Shown: positions 14,532-48,886 of the stretch, in pieces
Numbering within the stretch: position 1 is the first letter of the stretch
Layout of the letters: each line of letters starts with the position of its first letter
Assembly: GCA_963762255.1 (NCBI GenBank)
Contig: CAVXKA010000001.1
Location: 1,024,001-1,088,000 of the forward strand
Length of the DNA: 64,000 bases
Origin: Candidatus Eiseniibacteriota bacterium
GTDB lineage: Bacteria; Eisenbacteria; RBG-16-71-46; JABDJR01
Reading direction: 5' to 3'
Program-made: the position numbers and the translations under genes
The notes under the pieces: generated by a model
What the model was told of the DNA's origin: nothing
Database searches by the model: none
What the model saw: the letters and a program-made list of their open reading frames with translations, nothing else

Positions 14532-15026
14532 ATGAAGAAGGTCCTCTTCTTCACCGTAGCCCTGAGCCTGATCGCGACGGCGGCCATGGCACATGACGTG
14601 ACCGGCCGGTTTGGCCTGGGCTTTGTTTCGACGGACGCCCCTGTAGGCGGCCGTTACTGGTTGAACGAGAAGATGGGTATCGACGGCGGGATCGGGTTCT
14701 CGAGTCAGGACCTGGGCGAAGAAACCGCGACGACGTTCGTGCTGAACGCCGGCGTGCCGTTCATCTTCAACGCCGCGGGTGACCGTGTGAACTTCCTGAT
14801 CCGCCCCGGGATCGAGTTCACCAGCCTGGAAGCCGGCACTATCATCGAGCTGAGCGGCGCTCTGGAGTTCGAGGTGTTCGTCACCGACGACTTCTCGGTG
14901 AGCGCGGCGCACGGGATTGCCATCACGATGAACAGCCCGGACGAGGGCGATAGTGCTACCAACTTCGGTCTGTTTGGCAACAACTGGACCGGCTTCGGGT
15001 TCCACTACTACCTGAAGAGCAAGTAG
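14532..15026 (+). CDS. Small outer-membrane beta-barrel protein
   Basis: Signal peptide AMA-H, alternating amphipathic strands, C-terminal FGFHYYL; SD AAGGAGG. Confidence 0.75.
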   Translation: MKKVLFFTVALSLIATAAMAHDVTGRFGLGFVSTDAPVGGRYWLNEKMGIDGGIGFSSQDLGEETATTFVLNAGVPFIFNAAGDRVNFLIRPGIEFTSLEAGTIIELSGALEFEVFVTDDFSVSAAHGIAITMNSPDEGDSATNFGLFGNNWTGFGFHYYLKSK

Positions 15027-15063
15027 GCCGCGGGTCAAACCCGTGTCCGCAGGCTCTTGGTTC

Positions 15064-15100
15064 GAGGCCCCGTCGCGCGAGCGGCGGGGCCTTTCCTCTT
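15064..15100 (+). terminator. Intrinsic terminator between the two barrel genes
   Basis: AGGCCCCGTCGC-GCGA-GCGGCGGGGCCT followed by TTCCTCTT. Confidence 0.65.
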
Positions 15101-15135
15101 CGCGCCCTGGATGGCTCCCCCGATGCGTCCTCGGT

Positions 15136-15663
15136 GTGCTTCTCGTCGCGGTTGGGCTATTACCGGCTCAAGCGGCGCAGGCCGACGCACCGAACTCCCC
15201 GCGATTCGGCAGGGATGTTGCGGGCAGGTGGGGCATCGGGATGCTCTCCGCAGATATCCCGATCGGGGTTCGTCACCACTTCGATCACAGGATAGGAGTG
15301 GAGACCGGGATCGGTCTCGCGACCCGCTCCACCGACGGCTCGTCCCGGACCGACTTTGCCCTTGAAGGCGCTTTGCTGTACGCGCTGGCCCCCGGGGATC
15401 GGACGAACTTCTATCTCCGACCCTCCGCCGGGTTCCTCAGCGAGCAGCGAGCAGATGGAACCTACTCGACCATCGTGCTCGGCGCGGGGCTCCTCTTCGA
15501 AGTCTTTCTGACTCGCGATCTCTCCGTCTCCGCGGCCCAACGTCTGTCGATCGATTTTGTGGGCCCGCCTCCAGGTGACGGCCCGGCCTCAGACGATCGA
15601 GTCACAATCATGCTCCGCGGGGAGCGGTGGCCGCGGCTGGGCTTCGTCTACTACTTGCCCTAG
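15136..15663 (+). CDS. Second, paralogous outer-membrane beta-barrel protein (start uncertain)
   Basis: DVAGRWGIG...GDRTNFYLRP...FEVFLTRDLSVSAA...LGFVYYL aligns with the previous gene. Confidence 0.65.
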   Translation: MLLVAVGLLPAQAAQADAPNSPRFGRDVAGRWGIGMLSADIPIGVRHHFDHRIGVETGIGLATRSTDGSSRTDFALEGALLYALAPGDRTNFYLRPSAGFLSEQRADGTYSTIVLGAGLLFEVFLTRDLSVSAAQRLSIDFVGPPPGDGPASDDRVTIMLRGERWPRLGFVYYLP

Positions 15664-15726
15664 GTGGAGATCGGGTGGCTCGACGGGGACAGTTAGCCGT
15701 GGGGTGATCGATCGGTAGCCGCTGAC

Positions 15727-15760
15727 AAAAAGTTTGGGGCACCCGGCTTTCGGGTGCCCC
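15727..15760 (-). terminator. Intrinsic terminator, minus strand
   Basis: Minus strand GGGGCACCCG-AAAGC-CGGGTGCCCC-AAACTTTTT. Confidence 0.75.
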
Positions 15761-16162
15761 TACGGCGTCCACAAGAGCGGGCTTGTATACTCTTGCGACG
15801 CGCGATCCCCCCCTCAGGGATCAGGTTGGCCCCCGCCGTCCGCGCCGTCGTCCAAGAACGAGCTAGACCTTATTGGGAGGCATCCCAGGCCAAGCGGGCG
15901 CTTGCAGTGCGAACCCACCAGACGGTTCGCGATCGTCGGGAGCCAGTCGAGAGGATCGTCTCGGCCACCTTCGCGGCCGTCGGACCCAAACCTTCTTTGC
16001 CGTGATGCGCTCCCCAACGGCCTTGCAGAGAAGGCCGCGTGGGTGGCTCGAAAGGTGGCTGCCTCTTCACCTCGCGAGCCACCCTGCCGGGGTTGGAGAG
16101 TGGCACTGCGGCTTTTTGGTGCTGAAGCTGCTTCCCTCTTCCGAGAGTCTCGCTGCTTCGAC
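15727..16162 (-). ncRNA. Candidate large structured non-coding RNA (~435 nt), family not recognised
   Basis: Bounded by a sigma54 promoter and a terminator; about ten stems visible by eye; no ORF with an SD or a protein-like sequence. Confidence 0.6.
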
Positions 16163-16173
16163 GTCCTGTATTC

Positions 16174-16241
16174 GCAACCTACGTGCCATGCTCGGAATCG
16201 GACCCGTCCAATCTCGTAATCTATTATCAATCAATGAGTTA
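16174..16241 (-). promoter_or_regulatory. Sigma54 -24/-12 promoter with an upstream IHF site
   Basis: Minus strand TGGCACGTAGGTTGC (16188-16174); AATCAATGAGTTA (16229-16241) matches WATCAANNNNTTR. Confidence 0.75.
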
Positions 16242-16472
16242 GTCTCTAGCTCCGGAGTCCTTGCCGGGCGGGCTGCCGGGTCGGCGCCGGACTCCGGTGG
16301 GTACGGCGAAACCATCTCGACGACGACCGCACCTGTAATTCATTACAGGACAATGAGTTATTCGTGGGTACGGCGTACCCGTCAAACTGGACGTTGGGAA
16401 TCGTGGTAGTAACCGTTCGACGACTGCCCTGTCACGCTGGCGAGCGCTAGGATCGTCCCACCGAGGAGACGC

Positions 16473-17144
16473 ATGCCGGACTGGAATGAACTCTTCCGAG
16501 ACGATCGAAATGTCATCGAGAGCCCCGAGCCCATCGTGCTGGAGCTTGTTGCCACCCTCGCCGCGCGCTCACGAGTGCTCGATCTCGGTTGTGGAGCCGG
16601 TCGCCACCTGACCTTGCTTGCCGCGGCTTCCCACCGCGCGGTCGGGGTCGACGTGGCAACCGAGGGCCTTGCGCGATGCCGACGCCGACTCGAGGTGGAG
16701 ACCCTGCGGGCGAACCTCGCCCGGGCGGACTTCCGCCGTCCGCTGCCATTCCGCGATGCCTCATTTGACGCCGTGCTCGCCATCAAATCGATCAACCATG
16801 CGCGGCCCGAAGAGGTGACGCTGGCGTTCGCCGAGGCCATGCGTGTCCTACAGGTTGGTGGGAGGTTCGTCGCGAGCGTGATCGCGTCCACCGACGCTCG
16901 CTGCGGTGACGGGCACGAAATCGCGGAGCGCACCTTCGTGCATGACCGGCCTCCGGAAGAAGGGGTCGTACACCATTACTTCACGGAAGCTGAACTGAGA
17001 AACCTGCTTGGCCCGTGCGCATTCGTTGATCTGTTTCTCGTCGAGCGCTACGTGGCTCCCGAAGAGCCGATCTTCGGGCAGTACCGGTTTCGGGCTGGGG
17101 CGGCGCCCTTCTTCAGGCACTGGTGCTGTCGCGCCATACGCTAG
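16473..17144 (+). CDS. Class I SAM-dependent methyltransferase
   Basis: VLDLGCGAGRH and LPFRDASFDAV motifs; SD GAGGAG. Confidence 0.85.
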   Translation: MPDWNELFRDDRNVIESPEPIVLELVATLAARSRVLDLGCGAGRHLTLLAAASHRAVGVDVATEGLARCRRRLEVETLRANLARADFRRPLPFRDASFDAVLAIKSINHARPEEVTLAFAEAMRVLQVGGRFVASVIASTDARCGDGHEIAERTFVHDRPPEEGVVHHYFTEAELRNLLGPCAFVDLFLVERYVAPEEPIFGQYRFRAGAAPFFRHWCCRAIR

Positions 17145-17277
17145 CGCGCAGGCCTGTTTCAGGCCGCATCACTGTTCCAAGTTGAGACAGCACCTCTGTT
17201 TCGGATTGAATCAGAATCGCGTTGCGGCTTGCGCTCCAATGTGGGACGGGGCCTATGGCGGCGGCTAATGCTCTATA

Positions 17278-17332
17278 AAATAATGAGTTAACAGCCATTT
17301 AGCTCGCGGCCAGGAAGTGGCACGGCGGCTGC
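17278..17332 (+). promoter_or_regulatory. Sigma54-type promoter with an IHF-like site upstream of hsp20-dnaK
   Basis: TGGCACGGCGGCTGC at 17318-17332; AAATAATGAGTTA at 17278-17290. Confidence 0.65.
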
Positions 17333-17452
17333 AATTGGGGGTGCCGTACATTGAGGTGGGCATTGGAAAGCTCGCCTCTGAAGTCATGATTCCATACAAT
17401 CAACTGCCTCGCTCCGGCCGCGCCGGGGCAGGCCATCCGGAGGAAGAGAGCG

Positions 17453-17899
17453 ATGGCCATCGTACATTGGAGACCGATGGGTGATCTGGTCACTGTGCAG
17501 GACGAGATGAACCGCGTGTTCGAGGATCTGTGGCGCCGCAGCCCGCGGTCCGGCTCCCCCGGTTCGGCCGCGGCATGGTGGCCCTCGATCGATGTCCAGG
17601 AGACACAAAGCGAGTTCAGGCTCGTGGCGGAACTGCCCGGCCTCAAGCGCGATCATGTCAAAATCTCGCTGACAGACAACGTGCTGACGCTGCGCGGCGA
17701 GAAGAAGTCGGAGCAGGATCGGGAGACTGGGAGCTGGCACCAGGCGGAGCGCGCGTACGGCGTGTTCGAGCGGAGTTTTCAGCTCACGTGCCCGGTCGAC
17801 GCATCCAAGGTCAAGGCGAAGTTCGAGGACGGGGTACTCACGATCACGCTGCCCAAGTCCGAGGAGTCGCGCCCTCGTGAGATCAGCATCGAATCCTGA
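17453..17899 (+). CDS. Hsp20/alpha-crystallin small heat-shock protein
   Basis: AELPGL, ERAYGVFERSF and AKFEDGVLTITLPK motifs. Confidence 0.95.
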   Translation: MAIVHWRPMGDLVTVQDEMNRVFEDLWRRSPRSGSPGSAAAWWPSIDVQETQSEFRLVAELPGLKRDHVKISLTDNVLTLRGEKKSEQDRETGSWHQAERAYGVFERSFQLTCPVDASKVKAKFEDGVLTITLPKSEESRPREISIES

Positions 17900-17920
17900 T
17901 CCACAGCAAAGGTGACGAAC

Positions 17921-19816
17921 ATGGGAAAGATTATCGGAATCGACCTCGGAACCACTAACTCCTGCGTCGCCGTCATGGAGGGCGGCGAGCCGGTGGTGAT
18001 CCCCAACTCCGAAGGCGGTCGCACGACTCCTTCGGTGGTGGCCTTCGCCAAGAACGGAGAGAGGCTGGTGGGTCAGGTGGCCAAGAGGCAAGCCATCACG
18101 AACCCCACGAACACCGTCTATTCGATCAAGCGCTTCATGGGGCGCGCGTACGACGAGGTGAAGAACGAGTCCTCGATGGTGCCCTACGAGATCGTGGCGC
18201 ACGGAAGCGGGCAGGTTTCCGTCAAGGCGGGCGACCGCGAATCCACGCCGCCGGAGATCTCGGCCATGATCCTTCAGAAGATGAAGCAGACGGCGGAGGA
18301 CTACCTTGGCCAGAAGGTGACCGAGGCCATCATCACCGTCCCCGCGTACTTCAACGACTCGCAGCGGCAGGCCACCAAGGACGCCGGCCGCATAGCCGGT
18401 CTCGACGTCAAGCGCATCATCAACGAGCCGACCGCGGCCGCGCTGGCGTACGGGTTGGACCGCAAGAAGGACGAAAAGATCGCGGTGTACGACCTGGGCG
18501 GCGGCACCTTCGACATCTCCATCCTCGAGATCGGGGACGGCGTGTTCGAGGTGAAGTCGACCAACGGAGACACCCATCTGGGCGGAGACGACTTCGATCA
18601 TCGGATCATTCAGTGGCTGGTGGAGGAGTTCCGCAAGGCGGAGGGGATCGACCTGAGCAAGGACCCCATGGCGCTGCAGCGGCTCAAGGAGGGAGCGGAA
18701 AAGGCCAAGATCGAGCTGTCGACCACGATGCAGAGCGACATCAACCTCCCGTTCATCACCGCCGACCAGAACGGCCCCAAGCACCTGAACGTGAATCTCA
18801 CCCGGGCGAAGTTCGAGCAGCTCGTGGACGATCTCATTCAGCGCACGGTGGAGCCCTGCCGGAAGGCAATCGCCGATGCCAACCTCAAGCCGAGTCAGAT
18901 CGACGAGGTGGTGCTGGTCGGTGGGTCCACCCGCATTCCCAAGGTGCAACAGCTCGTCAAGGAACTCTTCGAGAAGGAGCCGCATCGCGGCATCAACCCG
19001 GACGAGGTCGTGGCAGTCGGCGCCGCCATTCAGGGCGGCGTTCTGGCCGGCGACGTGAAGGACGTGCTCCTGCTCGACGTGACCCCGCTTTCGCTCGGGA
19101 TCGAGACGCTGGGCGGAGTGATGACGAAGCTCATCGAGCGCAACACCACCATTCCGACCAAGCGCGCGGAGATCTTCTCCACCGCCAGCGACAGCCAGAC
19201 CGCGGTGGACATCAAGGTCTTCCAGGGTGAACGGCCGATGGCTGCCGGCAACAAGCTCATCGGATCGTTCCAGCTCGTGGGGATCCCGCCCGCACCGCGC
19301 GGGGTACCGCAGGTCGAAGTCACGTTCGACATCGACGCCAACGGTATCCTCAGCGTGTCGGCGCGCGACAAGGCCACCGGGAAGGAACAGAGCATCAAGA
19401 TACAGGCCTCCTCGGGGCTCTCCGAGCAGGACATCCAGCAGATGGTGAAGGACGCCGAGTCCAACGCGGCAGACGATCAGCGTCGGCGCGAAGAGGTCGA
19501 GGCCCGCAACAACGCGGACAATCTGGCCTATCAGGTCGAGAAGCTTCTCAAGGAGAACGGGGACAAGCTCGACGCCGAGACGCGGGCCAAGGTGGACGCC
19601 GGCGTGCAGCGGGTTCGCGAGGCGCTCAAGGGTTCGGATGTGGGCGAGATCAAGTCGTCGACCGACGCGCTGCAACTGGTCTTCCATGCCGCCACCCAGC
19701 AGATGTACCAGTCTGCGGGAGGGGCCGCCGGCCCGAGCGGGAACGAGTCACCGGGGGACGGCGGCAAGGGCAACAAGGGCTCGGTGGACGCCGATTTCGA
19801 GGTCGTGGACGAATGA
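17921..19816 (+). CDS. dnaK: Chaperone DnaK (Hsp70)
   Basis: [25 protein letters not shown] and terminal DADFEVV. Confidence 0.98.
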
Positions 19817-19859
19817 CCGACGCGCGGGCAGGGGACGCCCGTCCGAGCAAGGAGCGGCG

Positions 19860-20183
19860 ATGAGTGAGAGCGTGCAGACGGGGCGGTTGATCCCCTACCT
19901 GGTTGAAATGTTCCGGTTCCAGGCCTGGGTGGCTCTCGGCAAGGTGACCAACCCGGTGAGCGAGAAGGTGGAGCGCGAACTCCCGATGGCCAAAGCGATG
20001 ATCGATCTCCTCGGTGAGCTGGAGGAGCGCACCGAGGGGCATCGCAGCCCCGACGAGACGCGGCTCCTTCAAGGCGCGGTCACCGAGCTGCGACTCAACT
20101 ATCTCGATGAATTGAAGAGGCCGCAGGCTGCGGAGCAGCCCGTTGCGGACGCCGGCAAGCCGGCGGAAGCCGGTGAAGCGTGA
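19860..20183 (+). CDS. DUF1844-like small helical protein
   Basis: ALGKVTNP...AKAMIDLL..LEERTEG...ELRLNY pattern; SD AAGGAG. Confidence 0.7.
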   Translation: MSESVQTGRLIPYLVEMFRFQAWVALGKVTNPVSEKVERELPMAKAMIDLLGELEERTEGHRSPDETRLLQGAVTELRLNYLDELKRPQAAEQPVADAGKPAEAGEA

Positions 20184-20761
20184 TGGGTAAGAAGCCGAGG
20201 ACGGTGGAGATCAAGATCGAGCCCGAACAAGGCGAGCCCGCGTCGGCGGAGGGAAGCTCCGAAGCACCCGTTTCGGCCGACGAGACGGGGACGGACTCCC
20301 CCCGGACCGCCGGGGGGGGGCCTCGGCCGATCTCCTACGAGGAGGTATTCGACCGGTTGCAGCGCTTGCAGGCGGAGTTCGACAACTATCGCCGCCGTAC
20401 CGACCGGGAGCGTCTGGAAACGGGCGCACACGCCCAAGGACTTCTGGTCGAGCGGCTCCTTCCGGTGCTGGACGACTTCGACCGCGCGCTGGCTTCTTCC
20501 GGGGGCGGCGAATCGCCGGAAGTGCACGGCTTCGCGCTCATCCACGAGAAACTCCATCGCGCGCTCGCCGACGCCGGACTGGAGCGAATCGACTCCGAGG
20601 GCACCGTGTTCGATCCCGACATCCACGAAGCGCTCATGACGCAGGAGGTGGAGCCGGAGCTGGATGGAGTGGTGATCTGCGAGCTGGCTCCCGGGTACCG
20701 TTTTCGCGGACGGATGGTCCGTCCCGCTCGAGTGCAGGTGGGCAAGGCCGCCGATTCGTGA
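20183..20761 (+). CDS. grpE: Nucleotide exchange factor GrpE
   Basis: LQAEFDNYRRR, LLPVLDDFDRAL, FDPDIHEAL and GY....RMVRPARV motifs. Confidence 0.95.
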   Translation: MGKKPRTVEIKIEPEQGEPASAEGSSEAPVSADETGTDSPRTAGGGPRPISYEEVFDRLQRLQAEFDNYRRRTDRERLETGAHAQGLLVERLLPVLDDFDRALASSGGGESPEVHGFALIHEKLHRALADAGLERIDSEGTVFDPDIHEALMTQEVEPELDGVVICELAPGYRFRGRMVRPARVQVGKAADS

Positions 20762-20797
20762 GCGAGTTGAGAACTTGACGCCCCGGGGTGGGCGATA

Positions 20798-21529
20798 ATG
20801 CAGCCCAAGGACTACTACAAGACTCTCGGAGTCTCCGAGACCGCGACCGCGGACGAGATCAAGAAGGCCTACCGCAAGATCGCGCGGGCGAGTCACCCCG
20901 ACCGCAATCCGGGCAATCCAGCCGCCGAGGAGCGGTTCAAGGAGGCGAGCGAGGCCTACGAGATCCTCAGCGACGCCGAGAAGCGCCGCAAGTTCGACGC
21001 GTTTCGCCGGTACGGCGGTTTCGAGCCGGGCGGGGGTGGAGCCCAGGGCTTCCCCGGCGGTTTCGAATCGATGCCGGGCGGGTTCCGAGTGCATTTCGAT
21101 CAAGGAGAAATGGGGGATCTCAATTTCTCCGACCTCTTCGGTGAGGATCCGCGCTTCGCTTCTGTCTTCGAGCAGATCTTCGCGCAGATGGGCTCGGCCG
21201 GAGCCGGTCCGAAGAGCCGCCGAGCCGGTCGCGGGGGCTTCGGTGCGCGCCGCCCCCGGCGGACGCCCAAGGACGATGGCGGCGATGCGATCGCCGGAGA
21301 TCGGTTCTTCGAGCGCGACGGGCTCGACGTGCACTGCACGATCTGGCTCAAGCTGGAGCAACTGCAGCGGGGCGCCAAGGTGAAGGTCCGCACCCCCTCC
21401 GGGAAGAAGGCCTTGGTGAAGATCCCTGCGGGATTCAAGATCGGCGGCGTACTGCGACTCCCCGGTTTCGGGCTTAGCGCGGACGGGCAACAGGGAGACC
21501 AATACGTGCACGTGGAGGCGGTGGCATGA
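20798..21529 (+). CDS. Short DnaJ-family co-chaperone (J domain, G/F region, one C-terminal domain, no zinc finger)
   Basis: KDYYKTLGV...HPD...[13 protein letters not shown]; no CxxCxGxG repeats. Confidence 0.88.
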
Positions 21530-47402: not shown

Positions 47403-47479
47403 GGGGTCGTAGTTCAGCTGGTTAGAACGCCGGCCTGTCACGCCGGAGGTCGCGAGTTCGAATCTCGTCGGCCCCGCCA
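47403..47479 (+). tRNA. tRNA-Asp (GUC)
   Basis: Acceptor stem GGGGTCG/CGGCCCC, anticodon arm CCGGC-CTGTCAC-GCCGG, T loop TTCGAAT, encoded CCA. Confidence 0.97.
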
Positions 47480-47557: not shown

Positions 47558-48886
47558 CTAGTCGATGCCGAATCGCTTGAGCTTCTCGTAGAGGGTCCGC
47601 AGCCCGATGCCGAGCTCCTCGGCGGCGCGCCGGCGATTCCCGCCGACATCGGCCAGCACGCGACGGATCGCCTCTTCCTCGATCTCCGCCATGGTCTGCG
47701 CGCCGCGTTTCCCTCGGGAAGGGACACCGATGGCATCGGCCATGTCCGCGCCCTGAACCGCGTCCCCTTCGGCGAGGATCGCAGCCCGCTCCAGAGCGTT
47801 GGCCAACCCGCGGATGTTGCCGGGCCAGCGACCCATACGAATGCGATCTCGCGCGTCGTTATCCAGGTGCAAGCCGGGGCGGCCCAGTTCCACCCGGATA
47901 CGCGCGAGAAGGGTCTCCGCCAAGGGAAGCAAGTCGCGCGGTCGCTCGCGTAGCGGAGGCAGTCGGATGGGGAAGACGGCCAGCCGATGGTAGAGATCCT
48001 CGCGGAACGCTCCCGATTCCACCATGGCCTCGAGGTCGCGGTTACTCGCGGCGATCCAGCGCACGTCCACCTCGATCGTTCGGGTGCCTCCGACACGTTC
48101 GAAGCGACCGTCCTGCAGCACCCGCAGGAGCTTGGCCTGCAGCTCCTGCTTCAGTTCTCCGATCTCATCCAGGAATAGCGTGCCCCCGTCGGCGAGCTCC
48201 AGTCGTCCTCTTCGCGCACCGGTCGCCCCCGTGAATGCGCCCTTCTCATGCCCGAAGATCTCGCTCTCCATAAGGCTCTCGGAGATCGCCGCGCAGTTGA
48301 CCGGGACGAACGGTCCGTCGCGCCGTGGACTCAGCAGGTGGAGGGTCCGCGCGACGATTTCCTTCCCCGTCCCGCTCTCGCCCAGCACGAGAACGGTGGT
48401 GTGCGTCGGCGCGACCTTCTCCACCGCCTTCAAGACCGGCTCCATGATCGGGTCTTCATACGTGAGAGGGGGCACCGAGGCCGCCTCGCGCGCCGAGCGG
48501 TCCTTCAACGTGAGGAGGCTCCGGCGCTCCAGCGCGCGTGCGACGATCAACCGAAGCTCACCCGGACTTGCGAGGGGTTTCTGGAGATAGTCGAACGCGC
48601 CAAGTTTCATCGCCTCCACCGCGCTGTCGACCGTGCCATGCGCGGTGAGTACGATCACTTCCATCTCCGGAAACGCGGCGCGGGCGCTGCGAAGCAGGGC
48701 CATGCCATCCGGCGCTCCCGGCATCCGGAGATCGGTGATCATGAGATCGAAGGCGCGATCCCGAAGCGAACGCATCGCAGCGGGTCCGTCTCCGGCCTCG
48801 ACGACGTCGTGGCCTCCTTCGTTCAGAGTCTCCGCGATGAACTCGCGGATGCCCGGCTCGTCGTCGACGATGAGAATGGCGGCCAT
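47558..48886 (-). CDS. Sigma54-dependent response regulator (NtrC/ZraR family)
   Basis: REC domain, GESGTGKE, GAFTGA, WPGNIRGL and a Fis-type HTH. Confidence 0.95.
   Translation of the reverse strand: MAAILIVDDEPGIREFIAETLNEGGHDVVEAGDGPAAMRSLRDRAFDLMITDLRMPGAPDGMALLRSARAAFPEMEVIVLTAHGTVDSAVEAMKLGAFDYLQKPLASPGELRLIVARALERRSLLTLKDRSAREAASVPPLTYEDPIMEPVLKAVEKVAPTHTTVLVLGESGTGKEIVARTLHLLSPRRDGPFVPVNCAAISESLMESEIFGHEKGAFTGATGARRGRLELADGGTLFLDEIGELKQELQAKLLRVLQDGRFERVGGTRTIEVDVRWIAASNRDLEAMVESGAFREDLYHRLAVFPIRLPPLRERPRDLLPLAETLLARIRVELGRPGLHLDNDARDRIRMGRWPGNIRGLANALERAAILAEGDAVQGADMADAIGVPSRGKRGAQTMAEIEEEAIRRVLADVGGNRRRAAEELGIGLRTLYEKLKRFGID

Follow-up and report, generated by a model that had tools for sequence, protein, structure and literature searches.

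What kind of gene occupies the minus strand between an outer-membrane protein (OMP)-like gene and a methyltransferase gene in a genome of Candidatus Eiseniibacteriota? The locus lies in a 64-kb stretch of contig CAVXKA010000001.1 (assembly GCA_963762255.1, positions 1,024,001 to 1,088,000), hereafter the window, to which coordinates refer unless another contig is named. The OMP-like gene (15043-15663, plus) is convergent and the methyltransferase gene (16473-17144, plus) divergent to a self-contained minus-strand unit at 15727-16188, which comprises a sigma-54-type -24/-12 box, approximately 435 nt of noncoding sequence and an intrinsic terminator (Table 1). The first-pass annotation, made from the letters of the window, had proposed such a unit without a credible open reading frame (ORF), and the box, the terminator, the limits of conservation and the lack of a conserved ORF all bear this out. 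On comparative sequence grounds, we consider it very probable that the unit is a genuine stand-alone gene for a sigma-54-dependent structured noncoding RNA (ncRNA).

The limits of the gene are apparent from its conservation. When the region 15700-16420 was compared by BLAST with 40 related genomes, query positions 233-693, equivalent to 16188-15728, were matched in five of them at 70-81% identity, and the flanks could not be aligned. The similarity sets in at the first base of the TGGCAC box (16188) and ceases in the T-run of the terminator (15728), so that the conserved block coincides with the predicted unit. Two covariance models, R1 for the 3′ domain and R2 for the 5′ domain, were used for wider searches. 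R1 matched 9 genomes in a sample of 151 from the class (9/151 in the phylum sample) and R2 matched 9 of 41 relatives; both recovered the same nine genomes, with a single copy in each, and the RNA was not found with the covariance model in the other 142 genomes of the phylum sample. Full-length homologues are thus present in eight other genomes of Candidatus Eisenbacteria, all metagenome-assembled, belonging to two families of one order: six of the seven other genomes of the window's family (the one miss being a 75%-complete genome) and both genomes of a sister family; the other families searched gave no match. A pattern scan of metagenome contigs added 14 loci, each with a full-length RNA (14/14). 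Of the resulting 23 loci, the 22 other than that of the window all gave full-length nhmmer matches, and 21 distinct sequences were aligned after omission of the duplicate contigs L041 and L042. Weak BLAST matches in two further genomes (G013, 40 nt; G040, 28 nt) are confirmed by neither covariance model, and four exact 19-mer matches in other phyla (Thermosulfurimonas, two cyanobacteria and one proteobacterium) are attributable to chance and lack an nhmmer match to the RNA. Collectively, these results define a new RNA family which, as far as searched, is confined to one order of Candidatus Eisenbacteria. Its members are 381-446 nt long.

A sigma-54-dependent gene is expected to carry GG at -24 and GC at -12 at exact spacing, kept in homologues. 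The pattern TGGCACN5TTGC has a single match in the window, TGGCACGTAGGTTGC, against 0.10 expected from shuffles; the form TGGCA(C/T)-N5-(T/G/A)TGC recurs with identical spacing in 23 of 23 loci, and rpoN is present in the genome. From this box, the 5′ end of the RNA is predicted to lie near 16162. A terminator scan found a G+C stem at 15760-15736 (10 pairs, nine of them G-C), followed by AAACTTTTT; four of the ten pairs show double-sided changes, and the loci of the sister family carry a different 11-bp terminator stem in the same place.

Activators of such promoters usually bind inverted repeats situated 100-200 bp upstream, and an IHF bend site often intervenes between these and the promoter. 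The exact IHF consensus WATCAANNNNTTR occurs in the window only as AATCAATGAGTTA (0.09 expected). Among the 21 distinct loci, approximately 10 (counted from the motif scan output) have an IHF-like site with eight or nine of the nine specified bases at -75 to -82, and four of these have all nine. Further upstream lie two enhancer sites, the distal upstream activator site UAS1 and the proximal UAS2. UAS1 has the consensus GG(G/A)TA-N5-TA(T/C)CC; 20 of the 21 loci have its half-site NTA(T/C)CC(A) at a fixed distance (-195 to -210), and 17 have the full motif GGNTA-N5-TAYCC. For UAS2, the half-site occupies -129 to -145 in 18 loci; the remaining three, all from the sister family, carry a variant. 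An AT-rich tract follows each repeat and is visible in most loci. In this genome, the 10-mer TAACTCATTG opens the tract after both enhancer sites (16351-16360 and 16232-16241, minus), which suggests that a module of activator site plus bend site underwent a small duplication. The promoter, an enhancer and an IHF-like AT-rich tract near -78, a layout first read from a single sequence, keep their positions across 21 distinct loci.

The genome encodes 23 strong enhancer-binding proteins (Sigma54_activat) and two proteins of the HU/IHF family, the best models for which are IHF subunits, with scores below the curated cut-offs. A search for other members of the regulon was negative: the genome has 29 strict sigma-54 sites, and enhancer half-sites lie upstream of none but the one described here, no second promoter carrying GGRTA-N5-TAYCC was found in this genome, and the motif is not enriched elsewhere (10 matches versus 21-34 in shuffles). 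Hence, the cognate activator seems to serve the RNA gene alone, at least in this genome, and to have the RNA as its principal or sole output.

Could the transcript instead encode a small protein, or serve a neighbouring gene in cis, as its leader or an antisense element? We regard this as very improbable. Mechanical ORFs of 25-125 amino acids do occur in every sequence, as expected at 63-67% G+C, and are common throughout this genome (66.7% G+C). However, no ORF on either strand is preserved in start, stop or frame among the 21 sequences, and the indels are not multiples of three. An AUG recurs at alignment column 71, but many rows have GUG, ACG or AUA there or lack the codon, and this start, the only recurrent one, is missing from at least nine sequences. 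As for a leader, a same-strand gene does follow the RNA in some loci, but this gene belongs to a different family in each lineage and the unit is closed by a strong conserved terminator. The downstream neighbours include PPK2, TonB_C and S8 peptidase genes, a convergent gene for a cyclic nucleotide (cNMP)-binding protein and, as in the window, a convergent OMP-like gene. Given that the downstream gene differs between lineages, the RNA is not a leader.

The RNA also falls outside the named classes. None of the 4227 models of Rfam 15, which include RNase P, tmRNA, signal recognition particle (SRP), 6S, CsrB/Rsm, CrcZ, GlmY/Z, Qrr, OLE, GOLLD, ROOL, HEARO and raiA, reached its gathering score over the RNA, the only such hit in the window being a tRNA (47403-47476), and a relaxed search of 15300-16700 returned eight hits with E ≥ 1.2, all far under the thresholds. 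The housekeeping RNAs of the genome score above cut-offs elsewhere: RNase P RNA at C3:36244-36629, SRP RNA at C3:338012-338111 and tmRNA at C3:695063-695424. Two loci score above the gathering threshold for 6S RNA (C1:103435-103588, 49.6 bits; C2:243811-243989, 87.3 bits), and the genome may therefore carry two 6S RNAs. A likeness to SRP RNA, in which the 5′ hairpin loop GGAA followed by GGGAAGCAGC recalls SRP helix 8, was rejected, as no SRP model matches up to an E of 10 and the SRP RNA lies elsewhere. The first-pass annotation had denied kinship with RNase P RNA, tmRNA, SRP, 6S and CsrB-type RNAs, and had placed the gene in a class that it could not name; on all of these points it holds.

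The size and the sigma-54 promoter of the RNA nonetheless resemble those of CrcZ, raising the question of whether it might be a sponge that sequesters a protein through repeated motifs, either CsrA on GGA loops, as in CsrB and RsmZ, or Hfq on A-rich motifs, as in CrcZ. This reading is largely refuted and we give it hardly any weight. The A-rich motif AANAANAA is present in 1 of 21 sequences, the GGA counts (6-11) equal those expected from composition (7-10), with three conserved GGA positions, and searches of the genome, which is 93.6% complete, revealed no CsrA (PF02599) or Hfq (PF17209).

By contrast with reading frames, base pairs are conserved. In a MAFFT alignment, which is not biased towards the model, a 72-pair model of the whole RNA has 96.0% of cells occupied by standard pairs, compared with 38-52% when the partners are slid, and 26 of the 72 pairs are double-changed (both partners altered); column shuffles give 7.4 ± 2.1, and none of 500 reached the observed count. 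A model-based alignment of the 5′ domain, which leans towards the model, has 18 of 31 pairs double-changed, against 5.7 ± 1.8 in shuffles. Compensatory pairs beyond controls without a conserved frame are the pattern expected of a structured ncRNA. The minus strand (436 nt) also folds better than dinucleotide-shuffled sequence (-220.3 versus -186.2 ± 6.4 kcal/mol; z = -5.37; 0 of 100 as good), and the plus strand gives z = -4.06. G-U pairs, which would be A-C mismatches on the opposite strand, are frequent in the covarying helices and fix the RNA on the minus strand, to which the promoter and the terminator also point.

Several helices are individually well supported. Four of the five pairs of P2 are double-changed, with 100% of cells paired in the model-based alignment; double changes are also seen in 13 of 16 pairs of P3, in whose loop the letters AGGCAGC are invariant, and in three of eight pairs of P5, which closes the central domain. 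Both arms of the outer 5′ stem are jointly missing in three sequences of the sister family. Hairpins proposed beforehand from the single sequence match the comparative model at the 5′ stem (16124-16159), 16041-16084 (exactly P3), 15874-15887, 15804-15822 and 15765-15801, and so does the terminator. The long-range helices fared less well. The closing helix proposed for the first domain (15999-16018 with 16092-16112) appears in single-sequence folds of 5 of 21 homologues, against 11-12 of 21 for the conserved alternative (16108-16112 with 16034-16038), and is not conserved; for the second domain, the 3′ arm was about right, whereas the conserved 5′ arm is 15934-15944 and not 15982-15993.

Alongside these covarying stems, the alignment contains approximately 110 invariant columns. 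They cluster in the internal loop of the 5′ stem, A(G)CGAGA, the unpaired CUCCAACCCCGGC, the P3 loop GAGGCAGC, GGGAUGCCUCCC, AUCCCUGAGGGGGGGAUCGCGCG and the P8a loop AAGCCCG. The C-rich strand CUCCAACCCC.GC is invariant in 21 of 21 sequences, as are the block AUCCCUGAGGGGGGGAUCGCGCG and the loop AAGCCCG of the 3′ domain, the helices of which do not vary, so that their pairing is neither supported nor refuted.

Evidence that the gene is transcribed comes from public sequencing runs, 20 of which, from 13 studies, hold part of the RNA; 15 of the 20 are on record as RNA. The contigs of four runs (X1, X2, X6 and X7) were compared with positions 15300-16700 of the window. Those of X1, X2 and X6, which represent three studies, all fall within the predicted RNA (15729-16149), although such contigs give neither strand nor true ends. 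Runs X9-X16, with word shares below 0.2, do not count towards this evidence. The presence of the RNA in RNA libraries is therefore supported. The labels of the metatranscriptomes (sediment, soil, ice, freshwater, bioreactor) suggest that the RNA is made in nature; beyond the four compared runs these labels are leads only.

Taken together, the conserved promoter, the two upstream repeats at fixed distances, the IHF-like bend site, the terminator, the compensatory pairs, the lack of a conserved ORF and the presence in RNA libraries are strongly supported. What the RNA does is less certain. The interpretation that we favor, with moderate confidence, is that this sigma-54-driven stand-alone ncRNA is a trans-acting effector of a dedicated enhancer-binding protein. 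RNA polymerase with sigma-54 would wait in a closed complex at the -24/-12 promoter until the enhancer-binding protein, bound at GGRTA-N5-TAYCC and looped towards it by the bend, opens the promoter on receipt of a signal. The RNA would then stand to this regulator as Qrr stands to LuxO and CrcZ to CbrB, as its principal or sole output, and would act in trans through its invariant exposed blocks, namely the strand CUCCAACCCCGGC and the loops GAGGCAGC and AAGCCCG. Such blocks might pair with G-rich (Shine-Dalgarno-like) sites in mRNAs or offer a surface to one specific protein. Taken by itself, a regulatory role in trans is slightly better than an even bet, and within it base pairing and the binding of a single protein are roughly equally likely.

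Several observations weigh against this interpretation. A simple genome-wide scan of start-codon regions for complementarity to the C-rich strand yielded no signal above noise. The RNA-library contigs are strandless and without true ends, so that strand, start and level cannot be read from them, and the contig of run X7 spans the flanks, which means that DNA in such libraries cannot be excluded. No gene for an enhancer-binding protein adjoins the RNA in any locus. The activator encoded at 47558-48886, considered as the cognate regulator, was rejected because it has close orthologues (75% and 66% identical) in genomes that lack the RNA. Finally, the size of the RNA, its multi-domain build, the approximately 110 invariant positions and the mutually complementary blocks (GAGGCA/UGCCUC) look more like a compact folded RNA than a base-pairing small RNA (sRNA), and the proposed long-range and tertiary pairings lie beyond the covariation test because the letters involved are invariant.

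The last of these points leads to an alternative that we consider unlikely, yet deserving of real weight: a compact 'ornate' RNA, the core of a ribonucleoprotein (RNP) or a ribozyme, comparable to OLE or RNase P RNA, made only under the condition that the enhancer-binding protein senses. It would be a new large RNA class, its invariant blocks forming pseudoknots. Consistent with this possibility are the length of 381-446 nt, several domains closed by long-range helices, the invariance that accompanies the covarying stems, the complementarity between invariant blocks (the P3 loop GAGGCA with UGCCUC, CCCC with a G-run, GCGA with UCGC), a 5′ hairpin loop that is mostly a GNRA tetraloop, and the occurrence in metatranscriptome assemblies of several studies, as is the case with abundant stable RNAs. 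However, no gene for a partner protein is conserved beside the RNA, the one exception in otherwise variable flanks being hsp20-dnaK in one family; dependence of transcription on sigma-54 and an activator is typically a mark of conditional regulators, not of housekeeping machines; the proposed tertiary contacts rest on unvarying letters; and the distribution is narrow, being restricted to two families. If this alternative were true, the RNA would be the first of its kind known to be switched on by a sigma-54 enhancer-binding protein.

With regard to the activator that a regulatory effector would require, metagenome contig L042 has an enhancer-binding protein gene 9 kb from the RNA. The closest counterpart of this protein in the present genome, at only 41% identity, is the activator at 47558-48886 (minus), a response-regulator-type enhancer-binding protein of 442 amino acids. 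The closest orthologues of the latter belong to two other families of the class and not to nearer relatives, a patchy distribution that may reflect gain or loss.

A recurrent neighbour of the RNA is a heat-shock operon, hsp20-dnaK-DUF1844-grpE-dnaJ, with which it stands back to back in the window's family. hsp20 lies beside the RNA in 16 of the 22 loci tested and dnaK in 13; in five loci hsp20 comes directly next to the RNA, in divergent orientation, and the methyltransferase gene stands between in six, the window's type included. In the sister family, the RNA and the hsp20-dnaK unit are on different contigs. The operon has a sigma-54-type promoter of its own, with an AT-rich tract and two or three TGTTTC-N5-GAAACA sites upstream, and across the class 24 of 30 loci have a sigma-54-type box 70-240 bp 5′ of hsp20. 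This looks like an extension to a further phylum of the enrichment of sigma-54-linked chaperone genes in Planctomycetota and Bacteroidota that a 2025 study reports (PMC12316311). An enhancer common to the RNA and hsp20-dnaK was rejected, given the separate sites of the hsp20 promoter and the intervening methyltransferase gene in six loci; the separate upstream sites indicate that the RNA and the heat-shock operon are neighbours and not one regulon. Nor was a diverged counterpart of the RNA found in other families: 5′ of hsp20, the RNA-negative families have no divergent sigma-54 promoter. On the unlikely reading as an ornate RNA, the physical coupling to a sigma-54 heat-shock locus in one family would hint at a role in proteotoxic or envelope stress.

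Two further features of the surroundings should be mentioned. Downstream of the RNA and convergent to it, two tandem paralogous genes (14532-15026 and 15043-15663, plus) encode small outer-membrane beta-barrel-like proteins with weak hits to Pfam OMP_b-brl, and this pair recurs in loci L019 and L043. A 767-amino-acid ORF antisense to dnaK (17384-19687, minus) matches Pfam NAD-GH (PF10712) with an E-value of 3.9e-179; NAD-GH is known as an artefact family that arises when Hsp70 genes are translated from the wrong strand, and the real gene at this position is dnaK, on the plus strand.

Table 1 Features of the RNA gene, its control region, matching library contigs and the adjacent heat-shock operon
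Feature	Position	Strand	Remarks
ncRNA gene, ~435 nt	15727-16162	minus	BLAST conservation, nhmmer, RNA-library contig, G-U pairs; start predicted
Sigma-54 -24/-12 promoter, TGGCAC-N5-TTGC, TGGCACGTAGGTTGC	16174-16188	minus	Sole pattern match in window; all 23 loci
IHF consensus, AATCAATGAGTTA	16229-16241	plus	Exact; at -67 to -79; sole match in window
Proximal enhancer site UAS2, GGTTTCGCCGTACCC	16299-16313	minus	Centred ~-144; 66-67 bp downstream of UAS1
AT-rich tract between UAS1 and UAS2	16333-16362	minus	Starts with TAACTCATTG; read directly
Distal enhancer site UAS1, GGGTACGCCGTACCC	16366-16380	minus	Inverted repeat; centred ~-211 from predicted start
5′ stem	16124-16159	minus	GAAGC/GCUUC (16155-16159 with 16124-16128) around hairpin CUCUC-GGAA-GAGGG (16134-16147); internal loop invariant
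P2 helix	16034-16112	minus	GCCGC 16108-16112 with GCGGC 16034-16038; encloses C-rich strand and P3
C-rich strand, ACUCUCCAACCCCGGC	16086-16101	minus	Invariant; unpaired in conserved model
P3 hairpin	16041-16084	minus	Invariant apical loop GAGGCAGC at 16058-16067
Central domain	15828-15944	minus	Closed by P5: GGCUCCCGACG 15934-15944 with CGGCGGGGGCC 15828-15838
P6 helix	15887-15891 with 15866-15870	minus	3/5 pairs double-changed
Hairpin GGGA-UGCC-UCCC	15875-15886	minus	Invariant; inside central domain
3′ domain	15765-15821	minus	P7 block AUCCCUGAGGGGGGGAUCGCGCG (15805-15821) and P8/P8a hairpin (15765-15801), loop AAGCCCG
Intrinsic terminator	15727-15760	minus	10-bp G+C stem 15736-15760, then AAACUUUUU
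Run X1, 421-nt contig	15729-16149		Wholly inside RNA
Run X2, 263-nt contig	15809-16071		Wholly inside RNA
Run X6, 359-nt contig	15817-16145		Inside RNA; 29 foreign letters at one end
Run X7, 5.5-kb contig	RNA and flanks		Relative <90% alike; uninformative on transcription
Heat-shock operon hsp20-dnaK-DUF1844-grpE-dnaJ	17160-21529	plus	Promoter 17316-17331, TGGCACGGCGGCTGCA, sigma-54-type
hsp20	17453-17899	plus	
dnaK	17912-19816	plus	
DUF1844	19638-20183	plus	
grpE	20180-20761	plus	
dnaJ	20798-21529	plus	

Large, structured and conserved ncRNAs are few in bacteria, each of them has opened new biology, and the host phylum in this case is uncultivated. The clean cassette of enhancer, bend site and sigma-54 promoter offers an experimental handle that does not require culture, since a model host can be equipped with both the promoter and a candidate activator. 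Should one enhancer-binding protein have this RNA as its sole output, the pattern of pathways that end in an RNA (LuxO-Qrr, GlrR-GlmY, CbrB-CrcZ) would reach the FCB (Fibrobacteres-Chlorobi-Bacteroidetes) group and, with it, organisms without Hfq or CsrA. A literature search for ncRNAs from Eisenbacteria, or for an RNA of this description, found nothing relevant.

How, then, does this RNA compare with known systems? RNAIII of Staphylococcus aureus, an RNA of approximately 500 nt with multiple hairpins, is the chief target of one signal-transduction regulator and, independently of Hfq, directs exposed C-rich motifs against Shine-Dalgarno regions; it also encodes a peptide and has a sigma-70-type promoter. 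The RNA described here is similar in being a multi-hairpin RNA, probably the effector of one regulator, with exposed C-rich motifs and in a genome where no Hfq was found, but it is unrelated in sequence, lacks the peptide and the sigma-70-type promoter, and its C-rich seed pairing is only inferred, the target scan being negative. GlmY of enterobacteria is a sigma-54-dependent ncRNA with GlrR as its activator, and CrcZ of Pseudomonas, approximately 400 nt long, depends on CbrB and sigma-54. The Qrr sRNAs of Vibrio (bioRxiv 10.1101/2021.07.01.450815) and GlmY come from genes dedicated to one activator (LuxO and GlrR, respectively), as that of our RNA seems to be, and share with it the layout of enhancer, bend site and -24/-12 promoter. 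However, the Qrr and GlmY RNAs are approximately 100-200 nt long and work with Hfq or RapZ, whereas the present RNA is approximately 435 nt long and multi-domain, in a genome in which Hfq was not found, and matches no Rfam family. CrcZ and CrcY, the subject of PMC5113210 and PMC4063720, are closer in format: each is a long stand-alone ncRNA with its own sigma-54 promoter and an intrinsic terminator, and the main output of one response regulator. Our RNA differs from them in its near lack of A-rich Hfq motifs (1/21), in its phylum and in having far more invariant sequence and long-range structure. In the latter respect it resembles the large ornate RNAs OLE, GOLLD and ROOL (PMC9723947 and PMC12286853), which likewise combine intricate covarying structure with invariant blocks and a restricted phylogenetic range; it is smaller, does not match their Rfam models, lacks conserved partner genes beside it and has an activator-dependent promoter. 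Thus, the sigma-54-dependent stand-alone ncRNA is a kind already known from Qrr, GlmY and CrcZ, whereas the family, size, fold and host phylum reported here are new.

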